Source: an uncultured Planctomycetaceae bacterium (GTDB taxonomy: Bacteria > Planctomycetota > Phycisphaerae > SM23-33). Taken from it: DNA of 64,000 nucleotides. The stretch lies in contig CAYRVX010000003.1 in NCBI GenBank assembly GCA_964427875.1, positions 46,910-110,909 of the forward strand, written 5' to 3'. The notes beneath the pieces are model-generated. The model made no database searches and was not told the DNA's origin. It saw nothing but the letters and a program-made list of their open reading frames with translations. Positions within the stretch are counted from its first letter, which is position 1. The number at the start of each line of letters is the position of its first letter. Below, one piece after another: positions 38,155 through 52,084 of the stretch. A program made the position numbers and the translations under genes.

Positions 38155-38453
38155 GGCATGGTTCAAACATGCGCAGCCGGTAGCCGAAGCGGCCAGGGCC
38201 TTGGCACATTTGTGAGCCCAAGATCCGAAGGTCGTTGCCGGCTGCCGGCTGCCGGCTGCGCTGGTCTCGTGGCGACCGGTCCGTTACCGCCGAGCCGACT
38301 GCAACCAAACACTGACCCCTGCTGAACCAACCCCGAATCACCCCCGGCAAAATCTTGCGCCCGCCCTCGTAAATGCCTATTTCACAGGTGTTTATAGACG
38401 CAATCGCCCAAAATGGCTTTGTTTCGTAAAAAGACTTATGCCGGACCATTCGC

Positions 38454-38498
38454 AGCCACAAAGGTCACAAAGGTCACAAAGGTCACAGAGGTCACGGG
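38454..38498 (+). repeat. Tandem 9-mer (aggtcacaa) x4-5
   Basis: gccacaaaggtcacaaaggtcacaaaggtcacagaggtcacgg. An inverted partial copy aagtgaccg lies at 38511-38519. Confidence 0.8.
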
Positions 38499-38542
38499 GT
38501 AGATAACTCAAAGTGACCGATTCGCCAGCTTCCCGGGAGGTG

Positions 38543-38732
38543 CTCGTTGACTCGTGAATTCGTTAACTCGTTGATTCGTCAAGAACTCCGCCCTGGCCAC
38601 TCGGCGGATTCGTTGCACGACCCATGGCAGCCGGCACAGCTTCTCAGTTGCCGAGCCAGCAAAGCAAAGCCCAACATCTCTTCGGGCAATATCTTTCCAG
38701 TTAACGAGTTAACGAATTAACGGATCAACGGG
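38543..38732 (+). repeat. Pair of ~28-bp inverted repeats (cgttgactcgtgaattcgttaactcgtt / aacgagttaacgaattaacggatcaacg) bracketing ~130 bp: a MITE-like or protein-binding element
   Basis: Arm 1 at 38543-38572. Arm 2 at 38703-38732, which is the reverse complement with 2-3 mismatches. The arms are built from cgtt(a/g)a(c/t)tcgtt sub-repeats. Confidence 0.6.
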
Positions 38733-39080
38733 CAACCCGTAAGCCAATCAGGATCGGTCAGTTTGAGTAGATAAGATATCGAAATGGCGTGCTTTTGCAA
38801 ACGCGCAACGGACAGAGTGTTCTCTCACGGCCCCGAGCGTTTCTGTCGTAACCGCCTGCAAAATCATAACCTTTGTGTTCTTTGTGCCCTCTGTGGCGAA
38901 CAATCCGCGTTTGGCTTCGTTTCGCGTTTTTCTTCTGATCCGCCGCCTTCCTTTTCCTTGTGATCACGATCCCCCCGTAGCAGGCATATACATCTCGCAG
39001 CCCTTTTTGCACAACGAAAATCGCCAGATTGCAGAAAAACTTCCGGCCGCGCCCGCCGGCAAGGGCGGGCGTAGGCTGAA

Positions 39081-39233
39081 GGTCGTAGGTCATAGGTCGT
39101 AGGTCGTAGGGCAGACCGTGGGACCGGATACCGTGGGGCCGTGGGACCGGATACCGTCGGACCGCAAGACCGTGCCACCGGATACCGTCAGACCGGCAAT
39201 CGTCCTCGTCGTCGTCCTCGTCCTCGTCCTCGG
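39081..39233 (+). repeat. Consecutive micro/minisatellite blocks: (ggtcgtag)x4, a ~23-bp unit (ccgtgggaccggataccgt) x3, and (cgtcct)x5
   Basis: Read directly: ggtcgtaggtcataggtcgtaggtcgtagg; gaccgtgggaccggataccgtggggccgtgggaccggataccgtcgg...ccgtgccaccggataccgt; cgtcctcgtcgtcgtcctcgtcctcgtcctcgg. Confidence 0.8.
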
Positions 39234-39246
39234 CCGTCTCTTCTCG

Positions 39247-39450
39247 GGGTTCCGAGTTCCGGCCTCCTCGGGGGCAGGCGGCCGTGCCGGCCGCCGTTAA
39301 ACGCTCCGCGCCTCCCTGCCCGGTAGGCAGCCTCCGGGTTCCGAGTTCCGAGTTCCGACCTCTTCGGGGCCAGGCGGCCGTGCCGGCCGCCGTTAAACGC
39401 TCCGCGCTCCGGGCTCCGGGTTCCGAGTTCCGCCTTCCCGGTTCCCGCTT
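39247..39450 (+). repeat. ~96-bp-period direct repeat (2 full + 1 partial copies), each with the perfect palindrome ggcggccg-tgc-cggccgcc and (gttccga)n
   Basis: Copies at 39247-39311 and 39337-39407 (gttccgagttccg.cctc.tcgggg.caggcggccgtgccggccgccgttaaacgctccgcgc). A partial copy sits at 39416-39450. Confidence 0.75.
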
Positions 39451-39454
39451 GCGA

Positions 39455-39500
39455 CTTCGTCATTCGTCATTCGTCATTCATCATTGATCATTCGGCATTG
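39455..39500 (+). repeat. Tandem heptamer (tcgtcat) x3 with degenerate copies (tcatcat, tgatcat, tcggcat)
   Basis: cttcgtcattcgtcattcgtcattcatcattgatcattcggcattg. Confidence 0.8.
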
Positions 39501-39739
39501 CTTCTCCCTTGCTTCCCCCGCCCCGCGCGGTATCCTGAATGAGACAAAAGGGCCTGCCGCTCACCGGGCGGCCGTCCGGGCAAAGCGGCAGGAACCAACG
39601 GGGCGGTGAGTGTGTCCCGCTCGCCATCATGAAAGCGTTATCTCGTTCATCCGTTCACTCGTTCACTCGCGGTCGCGGAGACGCCCGCGCAGGGCCGACG
39701 CGCTGATTCCGGGCACTCCTCGACCGTCGCCCCCGACTG

Positions 39740-42244
39740 CTAGGTGCTGATCTCGGTGACTAGGCCGACTTGCTGGGCAATGGGCGTATACAGATCCACC
39801 TCGGTTGCCGGGGTGCTGATGGTGATGATCAGCGCGTATCGCGTCTGCTTCTCGACGAAGCCCAAATGCTTGCGCTCGCGCCACCAACCGGTGACGGGGG
39901 ACACGGCTACCTGCCCGCACTGCGCAACGTAGCTGGCAGGCGCTGTCCACCAGTCCGAATGAATCGAGCCACGTGTCTGGAGCTTCGCACCGATCGTCCA
40001 GTCGATCGGATCGCTTGTAGACGGTCGGGCTTGCTCTTCTTCCCATTCCTGGCTGCTGATTCGCTGACGGAATTGCCTCTCCGTTTCGATCGGCCCTCGG
40101 AGTTTGAATCGCAGCCCATGAGAGGCATAACGGAACTTCCTGCGCCATCCCCGACGGCCGGGACTCGGCTCGACGAAATAGGAAAGCGTAATCCGAACAG
40201 TCACGTCTTGCTGGTGAAGGGCCTCCAGGGCAGCCCTCGGCCACGGCAACGAGTGGAGGACAAAGTGATTCGTCTTTGCCTTGGTGCCATCCAGCTTGAA
40301 TGGCTGAATCGCCCCCTGATGGATAAGCGACACGCAGTTCTCGACGGTATACCTGGCGCGCTCAAGGTTCGGTACGCCGTATCCGAAACAACGCAGGCGA
40401 GCATGACGTTCGTCCTGCCGGTTGCCGCGAACCTGACGCAGCATCTCGCCGGTCCACTCAGCCGAGTGGACGAGGAGGCCCCGAACCGTTTCCGGCCAGA
40501 GCTCGGGATAGTCGGCCATCAGGATGGCCGCAAGCCGGGCGGCCTGGGCAGTCGCGGCGCTCGTGTCGCCAGTCCATGTCAGCAGCCGACCCGTCGGGTC
40601 GAGTGAAGTGGTGAGCAGTGATAGATCATCGCAGCCGTCGATCTGACCCCCTGGTGATTGGGCGTAGTTGCCGCCTTCCATAACGATGTCCGGCTTCAGT
40701 GGCCATCTTCGGTCGTCCCAAGCGCGAGACGTGCGACTGGTCGGACAGAGGCCGCCTAGCGGCGCCACCGCCTGGTAGCCGTCGAAACCTATTGAGCTTA
40801 TCCGCACACGCTCCGTGAAGGCACCTACCGTCAAGGCATTCCAGCTCTGGCCGGGGTCCTCGATGCCGTTGGATGAGAGGTTGGTCTCGGGGTACGTATA
40901 CGAGGGATCCGTTGTGACATCACGGATGTTCCCGGCGGCGACCACGTACAGCCGCTGATGGCCGTCACGCTGACCCGCTGCGTGCTGGTCAATGGCCCCG
41001 GACCAGGAAGTCGGGCAACCGTGATCTCTACCCATATCAGCGGCTGTGATCGGAAGGCAGGCGACACGGCTGCGCTTGGGAGCTTGGGTCTCGGCCATGG
41101 CCAAGCTGGCTTGAGTGACGTAGCCCCATGAGTCCTCGGGGTGTGGCCGGGCGCTGTGGAGCATCCGAACGGACTCCAGGCGGTGCAGGAGTGCATGTGC
41201 CTCGGTGTTCCTAAGCAGGTCGGCAAGATGGTCGCCGAAGATGGCCAGGCCAGCGATCTCCGTACCATGGGCCTCGGCATGGTCGACCACCGGCCACGTC
41301 GGGTCCAAAGCCTGCGCGTCCTCGTCCGCAATCAACGGGCGCAATAGCGGGTGGGACGTATGCACGCCATGGTCGAGCAAACACACAGCCGGTGCGTCGG
41401 CGTGCGGCAAGACCAATCGGCCGACCAAGTCCTGGACGAACTCCCGCTGTTCCCGGGCTTGCAGGCGAAGGAACTCCGTGGGCACTTCCTTCGCCCGTCG
41501 TAATTCTGCGAGTCGATCAAGTAGCGGAACGAAGACTCGCGTCCATTGCGCGGGTGTTCCGAAGGCAAGGAAAACAAGGCGTTCAGGGAACGGAATGACG
41601 TGCTGACTCAGTTGCAGCTGAGTGTCCGCCGTTGCAGCTACAAACTCGGCGAAAGCCGAATCTGGGTCTTCATCTGCCGCAACGCGAATCCAGACCTCCC
41701 ACCAGATGGCTTGGTTCTCAGTAGCTGGGTATAGGCTCTCGTCGTCGGTCCAGAATGATGCGAGAACTGGGAAACGAATGCCGCTGATACCGGTGACCAG
41801 GTCTTCGTTCTTTGGGCGGCCGGATGGATAGCCTTCCGTTGGTGCCGTATTCTCGGTTTCGTACCGCTCGATCTTGCGAACGTACTTCTCGAGTTGCCCG
41901 TCGGGGACGTAGACCGTCGCGTGCAGACGGCCGTCATGGACTCGTGTGGAAAGCACTTCCACTTCAGGGCGGAGCTTTCTGTTCTCAAGGCTTTCGATCT
42001 TGAGGTCATACTTCCGCACGTCTTCGCCAACGACCTCAAGACACAGATCGCGTATGACATGGCCCGACTCACCGGCAAGGGATTTCGCATCTTCCACGGC
42101 CTTCTCTACGTCACCGATCAACTTCCGAGCATGGGCGCGTCGGTCACGCGGAGGCATTCTGAATTCACCTCCGCCCCCGGGCGGCCTGGTGTAGTTACGG
42201 GCCTGTCCGGGCTTCGTGATGAGAACATGTCGATGTCGCGCCAT
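39740..42244 (-). CDS. Subtilisin-like S8 serine peptidase, large (834 aa), IetS-like
   Basis: Catalytic-residue contexts LLDHGV (Asp), HGTEIAGLAI (His), VVAAGN (Asn) and GDTSAATAQAARLAAI (Ser). The gene has lower GC and different codon usage than its surroundings. Confidence 0.75.
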   Translation of the reverse strand: MARHRHVLITKPGQARNYTRPPGGGGEFRMPPRDRRAHARKLIGDVEKAVEDAKSLAGESGHVIRDLCLEVVGEDVRKYDLKIESLENRKLRPEVEVLSTRVHDGRLHATVYVPDGQLEKYVRKIERYETENTAPTEGYPSGRPKNEDLVTGISGIRFPVLASFWTDDESLYPATENQAIWWEVWIRVAADEDPDSAFAEFVAATADTQLQLSQHVIPFPERLVFLAFGTPAQWTRVFVPLLDRLAELRRAKEVPTEFLRLQAREQREFVQDLVGRLVLPHADAPAVCLLDHGVHTSHPLLRPLIADEDAQALDPTWPVVDHAEAHGTEIAGLAIFGDHLADLLRNTEAHALLHRLESVRMLHSARPHPEDSWGYVTQASLAMAETQAPKRSRVACLPITAADMGRDHGCPTSWSGAIDQHAAGQRDGHQRLYVVAAGNIRDVTTDPSYTYPETNLSSNGIEDPGQSWNALTVGAFTERVRISSIGFDGYQAVAPLGGLCPTSRTSRAWDDRRWPLKPDIVMEGGNYAQSPGGQIDGCDDLSLLTTSLDPTGRLLTWTGDTSAATAQAARLAAILMADYPELWPETVRGLLVHSAEWTGEMLRQVRGNRQDERHARLRCFGYGVPNLERARYTVENCVSLIHQGAIQPFKLDGTKAKTNHFVLHSLPWPRAALEALHQQDVTVRITLSYFVEPSPGRRGWRRKFRYASHGLRFKLRGPIETERQFRQRISSQEWEEEQARPSTSDPIDWTIGAKLQTRGSIHSDWWTAPASYVAQCGQVAVSPVTGWWRERKHLGFVEKQTRYALIITISTPATEVDLYTPIAQQVGLVTEIST

Positions 42245-42262
42245 GGGAACTCCCCGATCGGT

Positions 42263-43252
42263 TCACCTTGGTTTCCCACCGGAACGCCCACGTTGGGATA
42301 GAGCACGCTTCAGTTCGCTGGTCAGTATCTTCCGGCGTCCGTCGAGAACCGCATCTTTTGCCGCCTCTTCGCATGCCTTCACGATATCGGCGTGGGGCAT
42401 GCCTTTCGCCGTGTCCAGGATCGACCGCCAGCCAAGACGCCGAATGTCGAAGCTGCTGAGTCGGTTCTCGACGAGCCTCCGGGCCATGGTCGCAGTGGGC
42501 AATCCGTAGCGCACCGTGTCATCGAAGCGCCGGAACAGCGCCGAGTCGAGCGAGCCCTCGAGGTTGCTGGCCGCGATGATGAGCCCCATCGAGTCATCTT
42601 GTTCGAGGAAGATGAGGAATGAGTTGAGGACACGCCGGATCTCCCCGACATCATGTCCGCCATGACGATGAGCCCCGATAGCGTCGAACTCGTCGAACAG
42701 ATACACGGCGCGAGACTGCTTCATGGCGTCGAAGACAAGGCGGAGTTTGGCCGCTGTTTCGCCCATGAACTTCGTGATGAGTGTATGAAACTGAACCGTC
42801 AGGAGCGGCAAGCGCAGCTCACCGGCCAACGCGGCAGCCGTCATGGACTTCCCGCAGCCAGGCGCCCCAAGCAACAACAGCTTCCGGCGGGGAACAAGGC
42901 CGTGCGTGTGCAGACGGTCGACTTGGCGGTACTCGACCAGGACACGGTCGAGGCGCCGCTTCAGTTCGACCGTCAGAACCATGTCTGCCAGATGCGTATT
43001 CGGGAATGTGGCGGCGAAGAGACCGCTTAGCTCCCCCGTCGGCTGAGCAATTGGAACGGATTTCAATGGCGCTGGCTGCGCGGCTTGCATGCGACGAGCT
43101 TCGTCCACAAGGTGCCGAAGCTCTTCGGCGAGCTTCTTCTTCCCAGTTCTGGCCGCGTGTGCGGCGATCTGAGAGGCAACGGACAAGAACCGCTCCGGAT
43201 CTCGCTCCGTGTAGCTCTCGATCAGTGCTTTAACTTGTTGGGCTGTGGCCAT
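42263..43252 (-). CDS. AAA+ ATPase (classic AAA family), IetA-like
   Basis: Walker A LLLLGAPGCGKS, Walker B VYLFDEFDA, and sensor/arginine-finger region IIAASN...LDSALFRRFD. It ends 19 nt upstream of the S8 peptidase start, giving a two-gene operon. Confidence 0.8.
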   Translation of the reverse strand: MATAQQVKALIESYTERDPERFLSVASQIAAHAARTGKKKLAEELRHLVDEARRMQAAQPAPLKSVPIAQPTGELSGLFAATFPNTHLADMVLTVELKRRLDRVLVEYRQVDRLHTHGLVPRRKLLLLGAPGCGKSMTAAALAGELRLPLLTVQFHTLITKFMGETAAKLRLVFDAMKQSRAVYLFDEFDAIGAHRHGGHDVGEIRRVLNSFLIFLEQDDSMGLIIAASNLEGSLDSALFRRFDDTVRYGLPTATMARRLVENRLSSFDIRRLGWRSILDTAKGMPHADIVKACEEAAKDAVLDGRRKILTSELKRALSQRGRSGGKPR

Positions 43253-43591: not shown

Positions 43592-44320
43592 TTGGGCCAG
43601 GTGGGGAGCTTCCTGGACCTGGCCACATGCGAGGGCCTCGATTCCGCAATCTTCTCGGATCCCGCCTTCCTGCCGACCTACCTGGCCCGCGCCTTCGAGT
43701 ACGCCCACGACCCCGGGACGGAAGACGCCCAGCGATGGCCCCACTTCGTCGAGACGGTATTAGCTCGGATCAAGGCGCTCCGCAGTCTGTACGCCGACGT
43801 CGAGCCGCCGCCGCGGCTCGTCGAGGCCGTCGAGGCGATCACCGCCGAGCTCATCGAGTACTTGGCCCGGCACCCGCGGGCCCTCTACCGGATCAGGCCC
43901 CGCCAGTTCGAGGAGCTGATCGCCGAAATCCTCGCAAGCTACGGCTGGCAGGTGCAGCTCACACCTGCCAGCAAGGACGGCGGCTACGATCTTCTTGCCA
44001 TCTCGAAGGACGCCTCCGATCTGGAGACCTCCTGGATCGTCGAGTGCAAGAAGTATGGGCCCGAGAACAAGGTCGGCGTGGAGATTGCCCGGGCGCTATA
44101 CGGCGTCAAGACGGATCTCCGCGTCGCCAGTGCCCTCCTCGCGACGACGTCGCACTTCACCAGAGGCGTGAAGGCCTACAAGGCCTCGCATTACGATCTG
44201 GAGCTTCGTGATTACGAGGGCATCCTGGAGTGGATCAACACCTACCGTCCCAACCCCGACGGCAGGCTCTACATCAAGGACAACCGCCTGATCCTCCCGG
44301 GCGACGAACGCCCGGCGTAG
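43592..44320 (+). CDS. Mrr-catalytic-domain restriction-endonuclease-like protein
   Basis: The PRQFEELIAEILASYGWQVQLTPASKDGGYDLLAISKD...WIVECKKYGPENKVGVEIARALYG pattern is the Mrr_cat (PD-(D/E)xK) signature. The N-terminal ~100 aa are of unknown function. Confidence 0.65.
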   Translation: MGQVGSFLDLATCEGLDSAIFSDPAFLPTYLARAFEYAHDPGTEDAQRWPHFVETVLARIKALRSLYADVEPPPRLVEAVEAITAELIEYLARHPRALYRIRPRQFEELIAEILASYGWQVQLTPASKDGGYDLLAISKDASDLETSWIVECKKYGPENKVGVEIARALYGVKTDLRVASALLATTSHFTRGVKAYKASHYDLELRDYEGILEWINTYRPNPDGRLYIKDNRLILPGDERPA

Positions 44321-47751: not shown

Positions 47752-48525
47752 CTATGGCTCGCGGATGCGCTGGATCTTGAACAGCGCCGGCCAGACGCCC
47801 GTGAGCTGCTGCCGCGGATACGTTTGGGCGGGGTAATTCCTGTTGAGCGGCTGTAGACGGGTCGTCTGCTCTTCGTCCTGGTAGACCCGCTTGAAGGTCG
47901 TGCCCTCGTCCCCTTCGAGGCGGACAAAGCAGTCGTCGCCGCTGCGCGCCACGGCGTTGGGGGAGAAGACCACGATGTCGCCCTCGCGGTATTCCGGCTC
48001 CATGGAGTCGCCCACGACGCGGGCGGCGAACGCCTGCGGATCGTGCATGTCCGGGCAGCGGATGTACTCGTCCGCCATGCCGGGAGGGTAGTCCAGATCG
48101 GTGAAGTGGTGGGGGTAGCCGGCCGCTACGCTGTTGATCACGGGAACGACCACGCCGGCCCAGAGATCATCGCGGCTCTCGGGGACAAAGTCGGTATCGG
48201 GCGTCGCCCCCTCCTCGTCCGCCTTGCCGCCGCGGAGCTCCCTGATGACCGCGCGAAGCCTGTCCATTTCCGCCCTGAATCTCTCGTATCGTTCTCGGAC
48301 GTCCGTCGGGGTCCGCGCCAGATGGGCGATCCTGACCAACTCGCCCGGACGAAAGGTCAGGGCCCTTTCCAGCGATCGGAGAATGCCGTCGGAAGGGGGG
48401 TTCTTCGCCTTGCCCGTCTCGATGTTCGACAGATACGGCTTGGATATCCCAACCTGCGACGCGACCACCTCCTGTGTCATACCCAGTTCTTCGCGGCGAG
48501 CTCGCACAATAGAACCCAGACTCAT
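47752..48525 (-). CDS. XRE-family HTH + S24 (LexA/CI-type) self-cleaving repressor
   Basis: HTH LGMTQEVVASQVGISKPYLSNIETGK. S24 serine motif GDSMEP and lysine ...TFKRVY. Confidence 0.8.
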   Translation of the reverse strand: MSLGSIVRARREELGMTQEVVASQVGISKPYLSNIETGKAKNPPSDGILRSLERALTFRPGELVRIAHLARTPTDVRERYERFRAEMDRLRAVIRELRGGKADEEGATPDTDFVPESRDDLWAGVVVPVINSVAAGYPHHFTDLDYPPGMADEYIRCPDMHDPQAFAARVVGDSMEPEYREGDIVVFSPNAVARSGDDCFVRLEGDEGTTFKRVYQDEEQTTRLQPLNRNYPAQTYPRQQLTGVWPALFKIQRIREP

Positions 48526-48759
48526 GGCCGATCTCCTGAATCCGTCAAAATCTACGCTTCTGTACCATTATCCACTGTTTTCGGCACAAAGGCAAGGCTT
48601 TCTGAATAAACAGGGAAAAATATTTTTCTGAAAAAACATTGACATTGCAGGTTTCGTGGCTAAAATACATATTGAGGCGGGGTGCGTCTCCAGCGGCGGC
48701 GTTGCTCAAATCATTGTGTTTCTCGCACGGCTTCCGTGCGCGAGGGTCAGGCCTGTTCG

Positions 48760-49065
48760 TCAGGAACCGGATTCATCGGGCATGTAGGTGAAGCGTATGC
48801 GGAACAGCCGTCGTCCCTCGCGCTTCTCCGGAGGGTAGAGCTCGTTGAGGGCGCAAGCAAGGCCCGCCAGGCTCTCGAAGCCGTCCGCGCGGGCGTCCTC
48901 ATCGTTCAGTTCGCCGACCTCCACGGGCTGGGCGGCGTCAATGCGGACCTTTCCCAGCCCGGGAATGGTGTGCACGGTGCCGGCCCGGAGGTGACACCAT
49001 CGCCAGAACCGCAGCGTGGTGGTCTTGACTCCAGAGCGTATGCCCTTGAAGAACCTTTTTTTCAT
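48760..49065 (-). CDS. ASCH (PUA-like) domain protein
   Basis: KKRFFKGIRSGVKTTTLRFW...AGTVHTIPGLGKVRIDAAQPVEVGELNDEDARADGF matches the ASCH beta-barrel pattern. The start is taken at MKKRFF. Confidence 0.6.
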   Translation of the reverse strand: MKKRFFKGIRSGVKTTTLRFWRWCHLRAGTVHTIPGLGKVRIDAAQPVEVGELNDEDARADGFESLAGLACALNELYPPEKREGRRLFRIRFTYMPDESGS

Positions 49066-49078
49066 CAGGAGCATTGAG

Positions 49079-50536
49079 ATGGCCTCTGCTTCCAGACTTT
49101 ACAAGTGGTCCGTTCGTGTCAACTCCAAAATCCGTCGGCCGATCCCGCAACTGCCCGATGCCGGGCGCGTAGCGGCCATGTTCGGCCTCTGCGAGGAAGG
49201 AACGGAGACGCTGTACGAGCGGTTCTCCCTGGACGTCACGCCGGGTCAGATCGTTGCGGTGACGGGGCCCTCCGGAGCGGGCAAGAGCGTGCTGCTTCGA
49301 GAGGTGGCCCGGCAGGTCCCGCGGGCCCGGTGGCTTGGGACGGACGCGCTGGCCCGAAGCGACACGCCGGCCATCTCCGTGCTGTCCGGCGGAGACCTGG
49401 CAGAGCGGCTCAGCGTCTTGGCGCGGTGCGGACTGGCCGAAGCGTCCGCCCTGGTCACCCCCGCAAGATGCCTTTCCGGCGGGCAGCTCGTCCGTCTGGC
49501 GCTGGCCGAGGCCCTCCACGCCGCACTGCGTGCCGGGCGGCCGGAGCTCATCATCACCGACGAGTTCGCATCCTCCCTGGATCCGATCACGGCGAGAATC
49601 CTGTGCCGCCAGATACGCAAGCTCATTGTCGGCTCGCCGGTGGCGATGCTGCTGGCCACGCCCCACCCGGAGCTGATCCCTCACCTGAGGCCCGATCAGG
49701 TCATCGTCAAGCCGCTTCGGCGACCGCCGCGGTTCGTGCCGAGCCCCGCCCGGGCGGGCAGCGGGCACCTGCCGCATCGCTGGCGCATAGAGCGGGGGGC
49801 CATTCGTGATTACCACAAGCTTTGTTGCTTCCACTATTTGTCGGGGCCGCCGGCGTGCCACAAGCGGGTGTACGTCATCCGCCCGCCGCGGACCGCCACC
49901 CGGCGGAGATGGCGCGACCTGACGGCGGCGGAAGTTGCCGGCGTGCTGGTCGTCTCGCCGCCGCTGGCGAACGTACGTGGCCGGAACGTCGCCACCGGCG
50001 CGCGATACGCCGGGCCGGACCGGGCGGCGGCCCTGGAACTGCTGAACGCCGAGATAGAGTCCATCTCGCGCGTTATCGTTCACCCGACATATCGCGGCTG
50101 TGGGCTGGCGGTGCGCCTGGTGCGCCATGTCCTGGCCACGGCACAGACGCCTCTGGTGGAGGCCCTGGCGGCGATGGGACGCGTCCACCCCTTCTTCGAG
50201 CGGGCGGGCATGACGGCGTTCCATCTCCCGCTGGACGAGCCCGTCAGCAGGCTGCTCAGCGCGGCCGAGGCCGTCGGGCTCTCGGCGAACGACCTGGCGG
50301 CGGTCCGGCCGGTGAGAAAGCTGCTTTCCGAACGCAGGTCGCCGCAAGCGGCCTTCTTCCGGCGCGAACTGGACCGCTGCCGCAGGAACACGTTCCCTCG
50401 GCGCCGGCTCAGGCGTCTGGCGGATCCCGTCGCCGAAGTGTGTCGCCGAACCGCGCGGCGATACGTCTATTACCTTGCCGGGAAGACAGAGGACCGACAC
50501 GATGTCACCACGAAGACACCCTCAAGCTGTCAGTAG
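49079..50536 (+). CDS. ABC-type ATPase domain fused to a C-terminal GNAT-like acetyltransferase domain
   Basis: Walker A VTGPSGAGKS, ABC signature LSGGQLVRLALAEAL, Walker B LIITDEFASSLD. C-terminal SRVIVHPTYRGCGLAVRLV...FFERAGM (GNAT motif A/B-like). The start may instead be MFGL at 49148. Confidence 0.6.
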   Translation: MASASRLYKWSVRVNSKIRRPIPQLPDAGRVAAMFGLCEEGTETLYERFSLDVTPGQIVAVTGPSGAGKSVLLREVARQVPRARWLGTDALARSDTPAISVLSGGDLAERLSVLARCGLAEASALVTPARCLSGGQLVRLALAEALHAALRAGRPELIITDEFASSLDPITARILCRQIRKLIVGSPVAMLLATPHPELIPHLRPDQVIVKPLRRPPRFVPSPARAGSGHLPHRWRIERGAIRDYHKLCCFHYLSGPPACHKRVYVIRPPRTATRRRWRDLTAAEVAGVLVVSPPLANVRGRNVATGARYAGPDRAAALELLNAEIESISRVIVHPTYRGCGLAVRLVRHVLATAQTPLVEALAAMGRVHPFFERAGMTAFHLPLDEPVSRLLSAAEAVGLSANDLAAVRPVRKLLSERRSPQAAFFRRELDRCRRNTFPRRRLRRLADPVAEVCRRTARRYVYYLAGKTEDRHDVTTKTPSSCQ

Positions 50537-51158
50537 AAGGCTGGCCCTTGCCGACCTGATCGGGCGCAAAGGCCGCGCAACCGTTCTGCCGGCCCGCGCC
50601 AGAAAGGCGCTGGCCGAGCACATCTCTCGCCACGGCTGCTACCCCCCCGTGATCGTCCGCCCGCATCCTCGTCGCGCGGGCAAGTTCGAGATACTCGACG
50701 GCCACCATCGCGCGGAGATCCTGCGAGGTCTTGGCGAGAAGACGGCTCGCTGTGAGGTCTGGCCGGTGGATTCGGCCGAGGCGGGGGTCGTGGCCGCGAC
50801 GCTGAACCGCCTCCGGGGCCGCCAGGACGTCAAACGGCGTGCCGGCCAGGTCGGGCGCCTCGTGCGCCGGTTTGGCCCAGAGGGCGCGGCGGCCAGGCTC
50901 GGCATCACGCCCACGGCCCTGCGCCAGCAGCTCGCCCCCGCCGACACGCCTGGGCACCATGAGCCTCCGGCGGCCCTGGACCTCCAGGCCGTCGTGTTCC
51001 ACCTGTCCGCCGAGGAAGTACGGCACCTGCGACAGGCGCTGGACAATGCCGGCCGCCGCACGCTCGGCCGCGCCAAGGCGCTCATGAAGGTGATCGGGCC
51101 GGGCCCGATGCAGGCCGGCGACCTCTCCAGTGCCCGACGGGAAGACGCCGCAGAGTGA
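50502..51158 (+). CDS. ParB-like nuclease (ParB/Srx) domain protein
   Basis: FEILDGHHRAEILRGLG is the ParB N-terminal-domain core motif. It overlaps the preceding gene by ~35 nt. Start uncertain (ORF begins 50475). Confidence 0.6.
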   Translation: MSPRRHPQAVSRRLALADLIGRKGRATVLPARARKALAEHISRHGCYPPVIVRPHPRRAGKFEILDGHHRAEILRGLGEKTARCEVWPVDSAEAGVVAATLNRLRGRQDVKRRAGQVGRLVRRFGPEGAAARLGITPTALRQQLAPADTPGHHEPPAALDLQAVVFHLSAEEVRHLRQALDNAGRRTLGRAKALMKVIGPGPMQAGDLSSARREDAAE

Positions 51159-51232
51159 CGGGATCGGCGGTTCGGCGTTTTGGGCGGATTTGGGATTTCG
51201 AAACCGGGGGCGCCTGGGGTAGACTGCGCCGC

Positions 51233-52084
51233 GTGAGCGGCCAGAACGTCTACCTCAACGGGCGGATCATCCCGGCGGCCGAGGCGACCGTGAGCGTCTC
51301 GGACTCGGGTCTTCTGCACGGTGCCTCGGCGTTCACGACGATGTTGGCGCACAACGGCGTCGTGTTTCGGCTGGACCGACACCTCTCGCGGCTGTTCGAG
51401 ACGATCCGGCTGCTGGGGTTTCGCGCCGACGCGGACCCCGAGTGTTTGGCCGCGGCGACGAAGGACCTGCTGGCTGCCAACGAGCTGCCCGAGGCCCGCG
51501 TGCGGATCACGCTTACTCCCGGGTCTGTTCGCGGCGTCGGGACGACCACGCTGATCACGGCCGATCCGCTGCCGGACTACCCCGCCGAGTGGTACGAGAA
51601 AGGAATCGCCGTCGTCGTCTCATCGTTCAGGCAAGGCTCGGGCTTGAGTCTTGCCGGTCACAAGACGGGCTGTTATCTTCCCCGTGTGCTGGCCCGTCAG
51701 GAAGCGGCCGCCAAGGGCGCCGAGGAAGCGATCTGGTTCACGGCGGACAACCGCCTGGCGGAGGCGTGCTTCTGCAACGTGTTCCTTGTCCTCGGCGGCG
51801 AGGCGTATACGCCGCCGAGGGACACGCCGGTGCTGCCGGGGATCGTCCGCCAAGCGGTCCTGGAGCTGTGCGAGCAGATCCACCTGGCCTGTCACGACGA
51901 CAAACCGCTTACAATTCGCGAGATGCTGACCGCCGACGAGATGTTCCTGACGGCCTCGTGCAGCGGCGTTCGCCCGGTCGTGTGCATCGAGCGTCACGGG
52001 GTGGGAGACGAGAGCCCCGGGCCCGTGACCCGGAAGATCATGGACGCATATCGCGAGCTTCTGGATCGGCAGTGCGCGTCGTGA
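51233..52084 (+). CDS. Class-IV (fold type IV) PLP aminotransferase, PabC (aminodeoxychorismate lyase)/D-aminotransferase-like
   Basis: VYLNGRIIP N-terminus, ...RLDRHLSRL..., and a GxxR/E-type fold-IV pattern. GTG start at 51233 preferred over ATG 51155. Confidence 0.75.
   Translation: MSGQNVYLNGRIIPAAEATVSVSDSGLLHGASAFTTMLAHNGVVFRLDRHLSRLFETIRLLGFRADADPECLAAATKDLLAANELPEARVRITLTPGSVRGVGTTTLITADPLPDYPAEWYEKGIAVVVSSFRQGSGLSLAGHKTGCYLPRVLARQEAAAKGAEEAIWFTADNRLAEACFCNVFLVLGGEAYTPPRDTPVLPGIVRQAVLELCEQIHLACHDDKPLTIREMLTADEMFLTASCSGVRPVVCIERHGVGDESPGPVTRKIMDAYRELLDRQCAS

Follow-up and report, generated by a model that had tools for sequence, protein, structure and literature searches.

The defective prophage PBSX of Bacillus subtilis carries an Xre repressor, the sigma-like protein Xpf and the terminase XtmA/XtmB, and in both PBSX and RcGTA the head, tail and lysis genes are contiguous. 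PBSX and gene transfer agents (GTAs) are phage-derived, chromosomally fixed and vertically inherited. TmcA and NAT10 are RNA cytidine N4-acetyltransferases that couple a P-loop ATPase to a GNAT domain, the latter with a basic tail that binds nucleic acids, and Mom of phage Mu is a GNAT-fold DNA adenine methylcarbamoylase (PDB 8bv8) with neither an ATPase partner nor a ParB. ParB-CTPase-fold proteins fused to methyltransferases, to ASCH/DUF3850 or to an acetyltransferase have been documented in prophage contexts (PMC12704722).

Here we describe a locus at which an S24 repressor and an ASCH protein stand beside an ABC-ATPase::GNAT fusion and a ParB/Noc-like protein, within a 64-kb stretch of planctomycete DNA (the window). 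The partner set is that of the documented fusions (ParB fold, ASCH, acyl- or methyltransferase), but in the window the genes are separate, and the passages of that paper on these fusions describe neither an ABC partner nor a link to terminases. Homologues occur in genuine phage genomes, which also encode heads and tails: SSU5 (SSU5_125-129), nickie (gp160-gp155), Rhizobium RHEph10-like phages and Jace (gp85-gp86) carry terminase-adjacent ParB, ABC and phrog_886 'ABC ATP-binding subunit' genes. The ABC domain is homologous to that of the window, and for the GNAT-like protein the homology spans the whole chain, C-terminal tail included. These modules also have a ParB-like partner and lie just upstream of TerS/TerL; unlike the window, their order is ParB-ABC-x-GNAT, no S24 repressor is next door, and none of the phage modules examined has an ASCH gene. 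The annotation 'ABC transporter' that these genes carry is by name only.

Genes and control region of the locus

All four genes are real and intact. Their open reading frames lie at the coordinates and on the strands given in a first-pass annotation of this DNA, and profile searches bore out its four domain assignments.

47752-48525, minus strand: CI/LexA-like repressor with XRE-HTH and Peptidase_S24 domains, 257 aa (Pfam, PHROG, LexA motif alignment)
48567-48595, minus strand: sigma-70-like promoter of the S24 gene, TTGCCT-17-GATAAT (promoter scan)
48599-48611 and 48625-48637, no strand assigned: two direct copies of TTTCTGAAWAAAC, candidate operators (repeat search)
48639-48666, plus strand: strong sigma-70-like promoter, TTGACA-16-TAAAAT, 11/12 matches (promoter scan)
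48673-49078, plus strand: predicted leader (~400 nt) of the ABC::GNAT-ParB transcript, antisense through the whole ASCH gene (from promoter and gene positions)
48760-49065, minus strand: ASCH-domain protein, 101 aa, alternative start at 49074 (Pfam ASCH)
49079-50536, plus strand: ABC-ATPase::GNAT fusion, 485 aa
~49106-49708, plus strand: ABC domain of the fusion
~49784-50224, plus strand: GNAT core of the fusion
~50237-50482, plus strand: conserved basic helical tail of the fusion
50502-51158, plus strand: ParB/Noc-like protein, 218 aa, with an N-terminal CTPase-type domain and an HTH (NCBIfam, PHROGs and PDB profile matches)

The start codons of the divergent ASCH and ABC::GNAT genes are 4-13 nt apart. 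The overlap reported between the ABC::GNAT and ParB genes is real (35 nt, 50502-50536), and the ParB ATG has its own Shine-Dalgarno sequence, AGAGGA, 8 nt upstream. A plus-strand ORF at 48682-49077 was rejected as a shadow, since GC3 and third-position substitution bias favour the minus-strand ASCH frame. Substitutions relative to relatives at 73-96% identity are biased to the third codon position in all four genes, which argues for purifying selection. In GC3 the cassette resembles the flanking aminotransferase and NIF3 genes and clearly exceeds a nearby ietAS islet; this ietAS pair and an Mrr-type enzyme are found 4-8 kb upstream.

The repressor matches Peptidase_S24 in Pfam (1.7e-20; 73.3 bits, cut-off 23.3) and phrog_4 (repressor) in PHROGs (4e-31), and its N-terminus matches Pfam HTH_3 (8.8e-12). 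Its motifs VAAGYP, GDSMEP and TFKRV align with A84-G85, S119 and K156 of LexA; the Ala-Gly site and Ser/Lys dyad are intact, and the protein is a candidate self-cleaving repressor. The protein shares these features, its S24 domain and a divergent, putatively autoregulated promoter layout with both LexA and lambda CI. It is not LexA proper, having no LexA_DNA_bind winged helix but an N-terminus of the HTH_3/XRE type. Orthologues adjoin the cassette in at least 13 loci and also in the distant locus L094; in two of them the cleavage site or the Lys is missing.

The S24 gene and the ABC::GNAT-ParB operon have a common divergent promoter region, where the promoter scan found two sites against 0.2 expected and no separate ASCH promoter. 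Both hexamers of the S24-gene promoter are invariant in an alignment of close relatives. The strong plus-strand promoter is conserved across the clade; in relatives it drives an HTH regulator and the cassette operon, and it is kept here despite loss of the HTH gene. The search for operators between the S24 and ASCH genes, which the first-pass annotation had proposed, yielded the two repeats as candidates only. They fill the stretch from one divergent -35 hexamer to the other, and the second holds the palindrome TTTTTC-T-GAAAAA. Relatives, too, have a palindrome directly beside the -35: TTTCTnAGAAA, and in L094 GTTCAA-N6-TTGAAC. We infer from the sequence that the repressor would bind at these repeats, although, being A/T-rich, they could instead be UP-element-like promoter sequence. 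The repeat has only these two matches in 64 kb (at 48599 and 48625; 0.24 expected), which suggests an S24 repressor dedicated to this locus and not one of global reach. The conserved divergent promoters and repeats, together with the intact cleavage residues, give control of the cassette by the S24 repressor about an even chance.

The ABC::GNAT fusion and its partners

Fold tests assign an NBD fold to the ABC domain and a GNAT fold to the GNAT domain. Walker A (G63-K69), the LSGGQ signature (S133-Q136) and Walker B with the catalytic Glu (D161-E162) are present and invariant in 25 sequences. The pyrophosphate-binding loop of GNAT motif A (R/Q-x-x-G-x-G/A) is R339-G-C-G342-L-A344, with R and G invariant, and the ABC, GNAT and ParB motifs persist unchanged between sequences of only 30% identity. 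No permease was found, fused or adjacent, in ~45 planctomycete/genomic loci or in annotated phage regions; the fusion was therefore rejected as an ABC transporter and is taken to be a soluble ABC protein. It is strongly basic (pI 10.9, net charge +35), as are the GNAT cores of phage versions. The GNAT match is generic: many ordinary GNATs, both small-molecule and protein acetyltransferases, outscore Mom, so there is no specific relationship to Mom. The likeness to TmcA and NAT10, which extends to the basic tail, is one of analogy only, as their ATPase is RecD-helicase-like rather than ABC and no sequence homology to the fusion was detected.

In the loci compared, the ATPase and the GNAT always occur together, as a pair or as a fusion. 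JGI names homologues 'ABC-type ATPase with predicted acetyltransferase domain', a family that we take to be COG2401, and here too the ABC NBD is N-terminal to the GNAT-like domain; the annotation of phage Cyrano reads 'MK0520 protein, ABC-type ATPase fused to a predicted ...'. In the cultured SSU5 phage-plasmids and Pseudomonas phage nickie, the ABC and GNAT-like genes, usually with ParB, lie directly upstream of TerS/TerL. In Rhodococcus phage Jace, gp86 is an ABC::GNAT fusion that adjoins ParB, with a PanD-like gene and a CoA-transferase gene downstream. A GNAT-like gene is present on 285 IMG/VR contigs; among 80 loci fetched from these, ABC is adjacent to it in 79 and TerL lies within ~2 kb in 31. 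Clustered at 50% identity, the pair falls into 1,834 groups, and a single one of these, from E. coli phage-plasmids, has 1,192 members. It has no Pfam family and is annotated 'hypothetical' everywhere, and phage and terminase contexts dominate. The ATPase and acetyltransferase core is a widespread terminase-linked phage module.

The ParB-like gene had been described as encoding a ParB/Srx-fold nuclease-domain protein; it is of the ParB/Noc type, and the bare Srx-type 'nuclease domain' does not hold. The window protein itself scores under the threshold of Pfam ParB_N (E 0.03; 14.7 bits, threshold 26.3), but its orthologue in L031 reaches 36.5 bits, most homologues carry a precomputed PF02195 match, and NCBIfam RepB is matched at 8.5e-8. 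The family profile A2 finds Noc (7ng0) as its best match, at 1.3e-12 over positions 3-199 of 203 (N-domain and HTH), and ParB (6t1f) at 1.2e-10. The box II/P-motif arginine (GxxR) is present in the invariant D66-G67-H-H-R70. A ParABS partition system was rejected, as no ParA gene adjoins the window locus or those of the relatives examined. ParB has been lost in 12 of the 19 loci of the fused clade and is thus not essential for the core activity. The obligate unit is ABC plus GNAT, with ParB a frequent but dispensable partner.

The ASCH protein matches Pfam ASCH (1.5e-7; 32.5 bits, cut-off 21.2), is YqfB-sized and has a G-x-K-T-T-T-L-R motif when its orthologues are aligned. Its match to the NCBIfam N4-acetylcytidine amidohydrolase (PRK04980) is weak (3.9e-4; 20.7 bits, cut-off 93). 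On its sequence, the protein is best called an ASCH protein, as an equivalog score so far under the cut-off does not demonstrate YqfB orthology. By analogy, a YqfB-type ASCH would be the eraser matching a TmcA/NAT10-like writer.

A fuller cassette in relatives

Across the Phycisphaerae the locus lies in conserved synteny with NikR and with class IV aminotransferase, NIF3 and also Mur genes, and cassette identities co-diverge with those of the flanks. The locus is thus not a free-standing novel island. A ubiquitous pair at a conserved housekeeping locus had been named as grounds against novelty, and synteny and co-divergence with a housekeeping flank go part of the way there. The gene combination nevertheless lies outside described systems, with no PADLOC system match and no published description found in the literature.

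In relatives the cassette is fuller: the S24 repressor faces a sigma/Q-like HTH gene followed by ABC, GNAT-like, ParB, TerS (phrog_2538, 2.6e-8) and TerL (phrog_2, 9e-18, and Terminase_6C). ABC::GNAT and ParB thus belong to a larger phage-derived cassette, and ASCH is limited to one sub-clade. One clade has portal (PF05133, 1e-15) and major head protein (phrog_1328, 7e-79) genes nearby, as conserved as neighbouring housekeeping genes (PfkB). As in the PBSX region and GTAs, an XRE-type repressor faces a sigma-like activator, then small and large terminase, and the cassette is likewise fixed and vertically inherited. PBSX, however, has no ABC/GNAT/ParB insert, and the relatives' cassette, unlike PBSX and RcGTA, has no structural genes after TerL. 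The relatives' conserved but dispersed head and packaging genes look like an undescribed GTA-like element of the Phycisphaerae.

The window lineage has no HTH regulator, TerS or TerL at this locus. Homologues of TerS, TerL, portal and capsid were absent from the 64-kb window (tblastn) and from ~10 kb in the three closest relatives, and a prophage or GTA at the window locus was rejected on the former ground. Terminase genes might lie elsewhere in the genome, beyond the 64 kb searched, in which case 'remnant' is too strong a word. In several lineages ABC::GNAT persists although ParB or TerL is missing. Upstream of ParB-TerS-TerL, the GNAT position is held by a DNA methyltransferase in L093 and by a DPPY-motif protein in L092.

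Discussion

The best explanation overall, which we regard as evenly poised, is that the four genes are what is left of a phage-derived cassette and would provide an ATP-coupled acyl-transferase that works on DNA or nucleoprotein under the control of the repressor. Its parts differ in strength. A phage-derived, vertically inherited origin is highly probable, given the synteny, the co-divergence of the flanks, the relatives' TerL, TerS, portal and head genes, and the same genes beside phage terminases. The cassette would be an ancient packaging region at a fixed chromosomal locus; in the window lineage, the HTH regulator and terminases would have been lost, ABC fused to GNAT and ASCH gained, with the rest under purifying selection. 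The S24 repressor, on two TTTCTGAAWAAAC sites between back-to-back promoters, would repress both its own gene and the strong plus-strand promoter. DNA damage or a phage cue would bring about RecA-type stimulated self-cleavage and release the plus-strand promoter, and the transcript, running antisense through ASCH, would express ABC::GNAT and ParB.

For ABC::GNAT itself, a repressor-controlled, ATP-coupled acyl-transferase on DNA or nucleoprotein is our best guess. With DNA targeting supplied by the ParB/Noc-like protein, ATP binding or hydrolysis by the very basic fusion would drive acyl-CoA-dependent acylation of a DNA-associated substrate, most likely DNA itself, in a mechanism like the ATPase-coupled acetylation of TmcA/NAT10 and that of the GNAT-fold DNA modifier Mom; ASCH may be a reader or eraser of the mark. 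A nucleic-acid substrate is tentative, at well below even weight. It is suggested by the constant ATPase-GNAT pairing, the basic charge, the methyltransferase and DPPY-motif protein of L093 and L092, the weak ASCH amidohydrolase match, the PanD-like and CoA-transferase genes of Jace, and the ParB-fold fusions documented in PMC12704722.

The proteins may instead serve as packaging accessories of a dispersed GTA-like or defective-prophage particle system, acting with TerS/TerL (they might mark pac sites, for instance, or acetylate counter-ions or proteins of the packaging machinery), with terminase and head genes elsewhere in the genome. Tight linkage to TerL/TerS in phages and planctomycete chromosomes, the housekeeping-like conservation of one clade's head genes and a layout that recalls Xre-Xpf-XtmA-XtmB of PBSX are consistent with this. 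We nonetheless consider it unlikely, as the window and its closest relatives lack terminase, portal and capsid genes nearby, retention of ABC::GNAT without ParB or TerL points to a terminase-independent role, and tail or lysis genes were seen in no locus.

A new anti-phage defence or abortive-infection module, with an ABC sensor, a GNAT effector (acetylating, for example, aminoacyl-tRNA or a phage protein) and an S24 trigger, is more doubtful still. ABC ATPases and GNAT effectors are known in defence and toxin systems (PMC12839542), genes that came from a phage would be well suited to disturb the packaging of an incoming one, and the ietAS pair and Mrr-type enzyme are close by. However, a PADLOC-DB v2 run gave only partial, weak ABC-domain matches to mad3/mad8, with ASCH and ParB matching nothing; defence islands do not typically stay in stable synteny and co-diverge vertically over deep time; the GC3 is near that of the flanking genes and well above that of the ietAS islet; and both lytic and temperate phages carry the same genes beside their own terminases.

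A role in host chromosome organisation or the DNA-damage response outside phage biology, with Noc/ParB and an SMC-like ABC ATPase or as an SOS-induced acetyltransferase like E. coli YafP, is very improbable. The best match of the ParB profile is Noc, the L091 cassette lies directly downstream of recA, and the Mur cluster adjoins the locus in two genomes, but there is no ParA nearby and no known parS-like site, the ABC domain is closer to transporter-type/PhnK NBDs than to SMC/Rad50, and phage and terminase contexts prevail. Least probable is a decaying prophage scar, as the four genes are intact and enriched in third-position substitutions, the ABC, GNAT and ParB motifs are invariant and the promoter is conserved, despite patchy loss of the HTH regulator, ParB, TerS and TerL between lineages and a 74-aa ParB remnant in L004.

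Returning to the acyl-transferase reading, its boldest form, which we hold to be distinctly unlikely, is that the ABC and GNAT-like pair is an ATP-dependent DNA acylation enzyme of tailed phages (yielding, for example, N4-acetyl-deoxycytidine) whose genes adjoin the terminase so that it marks DNA for packaging, domesticated in Phycisphaerae with ParB targeting, an ASCH reader/eraser and a self-cleaving repressor as damage-responsive switch. If DNA acylation were true, the locus would amount to a writer/eraser system, epigenetic or anti-restriction in role and new in its chemistry. The planctomycete locus has retained the pair for very long without a surrounding phage, and sometimes without terminase or ParB, which suggests that what the pair does is of use by itself. 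If its activity is nucleic-acid acylation, the pair would be a new kind of DNA modification enzyme, and this would explain the recurrent mis-annotation 'ABC transporter' in phage genomes.

Genes of the cassette

Four open reading frames had been marked out in the first-pass annotation, and our ORF listing returned exactly the same coordinates.

Cassette genes (window coordinates, strand, assignment)
47752-48525, minus: S24 repressor; XRE-type HTH (Pfam 8.8e-12) and Peptidase_S24 (Pfam 1.7e-20)
48760-49065, minus: ASCH protein (Pfam ASCH 1.5e-7)
49079-50536, plus: ABC::GNAT, an ABC ATPase joined to a GNAT acetyltransferase domain, 485 aa
50502-51158, plus: ParB-like protein (Pfam ParB_N E 0.03; NCBIfam RepB 8.5e-8)

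The Pfam matches bear out the S24 repressor and ASCH assignments made there. In the repressor, VAAGYP, GDSMEP and TFKRV line up with the Ala-Gly bond, catalytic Ser and Lys of LexA. Two orthologues at the compared loci, L010:7094-7873 (minus) and L004:4012-4833 (minus), lack the Ala-Gly site, the catalytic Lys or both (aligned segments TNTPYP and TFCRM in L010, TFQRV in L004) and may be non-cleavable variants.

The ASCH frame has GC1/2/3 of 0.63/0.48/0.78, the usual pattern of this genome, and substitutions relative to three relatives cluster at its third codon positions. An overlapping plus-strand ORF (48682-49077; 0.76/0.51/0.61) begins just past the promoter and stops 1 nt before the ABC::GNAT ATG; its GC3 (0.61 versus 0.78) and the substitution pattern mark it as a shadow ORF antisense to ASCH, and it was rejected. 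Searched against PDB sequences, the ASCH protein returned no match, and its closest named relative, the N4-acetylcytidine amidohydrolase YqfB, is a weak match far below the equivalog cut-off.

Taken by itself, the ParB-like protein matches Pfam ParB_N weakly, at E 0.03. A profile of its family matches solved Noc and ParB structures at 1.3e-12, spanning both the CTPase-type N-terminal domain and the HTH; D-G-H-H-R is invariant in the alignment. The ParB-like part of the earlier label therefore holds, but in place of a bare nuclease domain stands a DNA-binding protein of ParB/Noc type. The overlap with ABC::GNAT is real and measures 35 nt, and the ParB-like ATG is preceded by its own AGAGGA. Downstream, a class IV aminotransferase ORF is listed with a GTG start overlapping the stop codon of ParB (window 51155-51235). 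Since its homologues in relatives are 278-281 aa long and align only from residue ~27-31, the true start probably falls near 51233, and the ParB-aminotransferase spacer would then be ~75 nt.

Divergent promoters and candidate operators

The S24-ASCH intergenic spacer is 235 bp long and A/T-rich. A promoter scan found two sigma-70-like sites, with 0.2 expected.

Promoters in the S24-ASCH spacer
minus, toward the S24 gene: TTGCCT-17-GATAAT
plus, opposite-facing: TTGACA-16-TAAAAT, 11/12 consensus matches

Both divergent promoters are kept in relatives. Their -35 hexamers are separated by 43 bp, within which lie two copies of TTTCTGAAWAAAC, a sequence with no other match in the 64 kb. The operator search proposed for this spacer thus yields the repeat pair as candidate operators, and we infer that the S24 protein binds them. 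In the distant genome behind locus L094, a palindrome of different sequence, GTTCAA-N6-TTGAAC, also abuts the plus-strand -35.

In relatives, expression of a small HTH gene is driven from the plus-strand promoter. This gene is missing in the window, so the plus transcript should cross ASCH in antisense for ~400 nt before reaching ABC::GNAT; the distance from the ABC::GNAT ATG to the ASCH start is 4-13 nt. Plus-strand transcription would then interfere with ASCH. An inverted repeat with a 10-bp stem and a 3-nt loop (TCTCGCACGG ... CCGTGCGCGA, window 48721-48743) lies directly beyond the ASCH stop, ~50 nt into the predicted plus leader; it is kept in the 96%-identical relative, is missing from loci L088 and L089, and could be a terminator or attenuator.

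A vertically inherited locus

The window is chromosomal DNA of ~67% GC, and its nearest relatives are metagenome-assembled Phycisphaerae/Planctomycetota. All ABC::GNAT homologues at 45-96% identity share one chromosomal context: NikR, (CBM protein), S24 (minus), [small HTH], [ASCH (minus)], ABC::GNAT, [ParB], [~500-aa protein], class IV aminotransferase, NIF3. At the distant locus L023 (30% identity) the aminotransferase is still found ~1.6 kb downstream, and a Mur cluster lies upstream both in L003 and in the complete 3.9-Mb genome behind L094. Cassette identity tracks flank identity; in L003, for example, ABC::GNAT is 56% and S24 58% identical, with NikR at 67%, the aminotransferase at 64% and NIF3 at 55%. 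Scans of the window for tRNAs and Rfam families found nothing, and thus no tRNA-linked integration site, and no integrase appears in the gene calls or Pfam listings of the flanking regions. The neighbourhood is conserved, as the first-pass annotation had thought worth checking, but not as a mobile island, since cassette and flank identities move together at a fixed locus. The cassette is inherited vertically.

Phage origin of the cassette

The ~500-aa protein of the shared order is a large terminase, TerL (phrog_2 9.4e-18; Terminase_6C 7e-5). At loci of ~30% identity, ABC (~215 aa) and GNAT-like (~245 aa) are unfused, adjoining genes in an operon that runs small HTH (Sigma70_r4/antiterminator-Q-like), ABC, GNAT-like, ParB, small terminase TerS (phrog_2538 2.6e-8), sometimes sulfatase/FAD-oxidoreductase cargo, and TerL. 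L094 has the complete set alongside a divergently oriented S24 repressor. ParB is present in 21 of 22 unfused planctomycete loci versus 7 of 19 fused ones. Neither the window nor the three relatives closest to it (73-96% identity) have the HTH gene, TerS or TerL at the locus, and no homologue of any of them was found in the whole 64-kb window.

At L031:10540-15743 (plus), and also in L035, L041 and L027, two same-strand genes separate the small from the large terminase: a TAT-signal sulfatase and a 1,100-1,250-aa FAD-oxidoreductase/F5_F8-type-C protein, which are host-type 'cargo' within a packaging operon. In a Phycisphaerales MAG (L091:7562-12746), GNAT-like, ParB, TerS-like and TerL genes, with no ABC gene called among them, directly follow recA in the same orientation.

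The same proteins occur in phages. A tblastn search of GenBank phages found ABC and GNAT-like proteins in SSU5-type phage-plasmids, Pseudomonas phage nickie and its relatives, Rhizobium RHEph10-like phages and Rhodococcus phage Jace. The GNAT-like protein is phrog_886, for which the label 'ABC transporter ATP-binding subunit' is a misnomer; phage and planctomycete versions align over their full length, including the C-terminal PVY(Y/G)-W-NP strand. SSU5 and nickie share the order ParB, ParB, ABC, x, GNAT-like, x, DNA-binding small-terminase candidate, TerL, portal; ASCH, sought among the small genes of these two modules, was not found. Jace gp86 is an ABC::GNAT fusion like that of the window and adjoins ParB. 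The GNAT-like protein is encoded on 285 IMG/VR contigs. Among 80 fetched IMG/VR loci the ABC gene is directly upstream in 79, making ABC and GNAT-like an obligate pair, and a TerL homologue is at most ~2 kb away in 31; ParB frequently accompanies the pair. Searching 1.84 billion representatives with a profile gave 1,834 clusters (885 at E ≤ 1e-30), none carrying a Pfam family or functional name. We conclude that the cassette is phage-derived.

Head genes and alternative roles

In one clade, a portal (SPP1-type, 1.2e-15; phrog_64 4e-25) and a major head protein (phrog_1328 7e-79) are encoded a few genes from the cassette.

Head gene set
L017:693-5237, also L020, L033, L038, L039 and L041, minus: portal, 194-aa protein, major head protein, two small genes

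The set lies on the opposite strand to the cassette, with genes for a PfkB kinase and a DUF4186 protein in between. Between genomes, portal and head protein are 69-85% identical, on a par with the adjoining PfkB kinase (69-78%); they are being kept rather than lost to decay. The loci showed no tail or lysis genes, and the set looks like a dispersed gene-transfer-agent-like (GTA-like) element in Planctomycetota. The cassette might serve as a packaging accessory of such a system, a reading favoured by its terminase linkage and weakened by lineages that keep ABC::GNAT without TerL or ParB. A role in the host chromosome or damage response would fit a Noc-like ParB and the one cassette locus that adjoins recA, but ParA is missing and the ABC domain belongs to the non-SMC type.

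Defence is counted against by several observations: conserved synteny, native base composition, the ABC and GNAT-like genes carried by phages themselves, and a PADLOC run on the four proteins that gave no system, in agreement with the earlier view that the combination belongs to no described one. A small defence islet, formed by the ietAS pair and the Mrr_cat gene next to it, ends 3.4 kb before the S24 gene, on its upstream side in window order.

Defence islet (window coordinates, strand, assignment)
39740-43252, minus: ietAS pair, anti-phage/anti-plasmid
42263-43252, minus: IetA AAA ATPase (PADLOC IetA 3e-66)
39740-42244, minus: IetS subtilase (PADLOC IetS 5e-26; Pfam Peptidase_S8 1.3e-48)
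43592-44320, plus: Mrr_cat restriction endonuclease (Pfam 2.3e-21; PADLOC type IV methyl-directed REase 3.3e-13)

The ietAS pair was probably acquired horizontally, given its GC3 of ~0.70 versus ~0.9 in neighbouring genes. In the adjoining ~1.6 kb (38160-39740), GC falls to its window minimum (0.557 for 38-39 kb); this stretch has no convincing ORF, tRNA or Rfam match and may be the edge of the acquired islet. Finally, purifying selection on the cassette, together with motif conservation, contradicts a reading as junk.

Proposed activity and significance

The catalytic motifs of the cassette are intact and its strong promoter is conserved. Several lines converge on ABC::GNAT as an enzyme whose acyl transfer would be coupled to ATP and directed at DNA or at a target bound to it. 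In every case the GNAT goes together with an ATPase; to our knowledge, well-known examples of such coupling are confined to the RNA cytidine acetyltransferases TmcA/NAT10. The protein is extremely basic (pI 10.9, net +35; the same-genome repressor has pI 5.3), as are the phage versions, and its partners, ParB/Noc-like, TerS and TerL, handle DNA. Upstream of ParB-TerS-TerL, GNAT-like is replaced by a D12 class DNA methyltransferase in a cyanobacterial MAG (L093:4064-5775) and by a DPPY-motif protein, called as a DNA methyltransferase, on a metagenomic contig (L092:9222-10612). The window's clade has gained the ASCH gene, and PMC12704722 documents ParB-fold fusions with methyltransferases, the ASCH-like DUF3850, ASCH and an acetyltransferase. 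The acceptor could also be a protein (terminase, portal or nucleoid proteins) or a polyamine. Directly after the Jace fusion (L087:7113-8224), gp87-gp88 are a PanD-like aspartate decarboxylase and a CoA-transferase family III protein (Pfam 2.2e-8), a hint that the acyl donor may be other than acetyl-CoA.

The single domains of the cassette are ordinary, and COG/JGI annotation already names the fusion an 'ABC-type ATPase with predicted acetyltransferase domain'. The literature searched (COG2401, MK0520, SSU5, ABC + GNAT + ParB, Planctomycetota gene transfer agents) gave no account of the module, in line with the earlier claim that ABC::GNAT with a ParB-like protein has no described pathway; ABC-ATPase classification work might mention the family. 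Nor did it describe the terminase linkage of ABC and GNAT-like, planctomycete proteins homologous to the phage 'ABC transporter' pair, a vertically inherited Phycisphaerae cassette with an S24 switch, or the reduced, ASCH-containing form seen in the window. We class the locus as a domesticated cassette of phage origin, with an uncharacterised pair of enzymes at its core.
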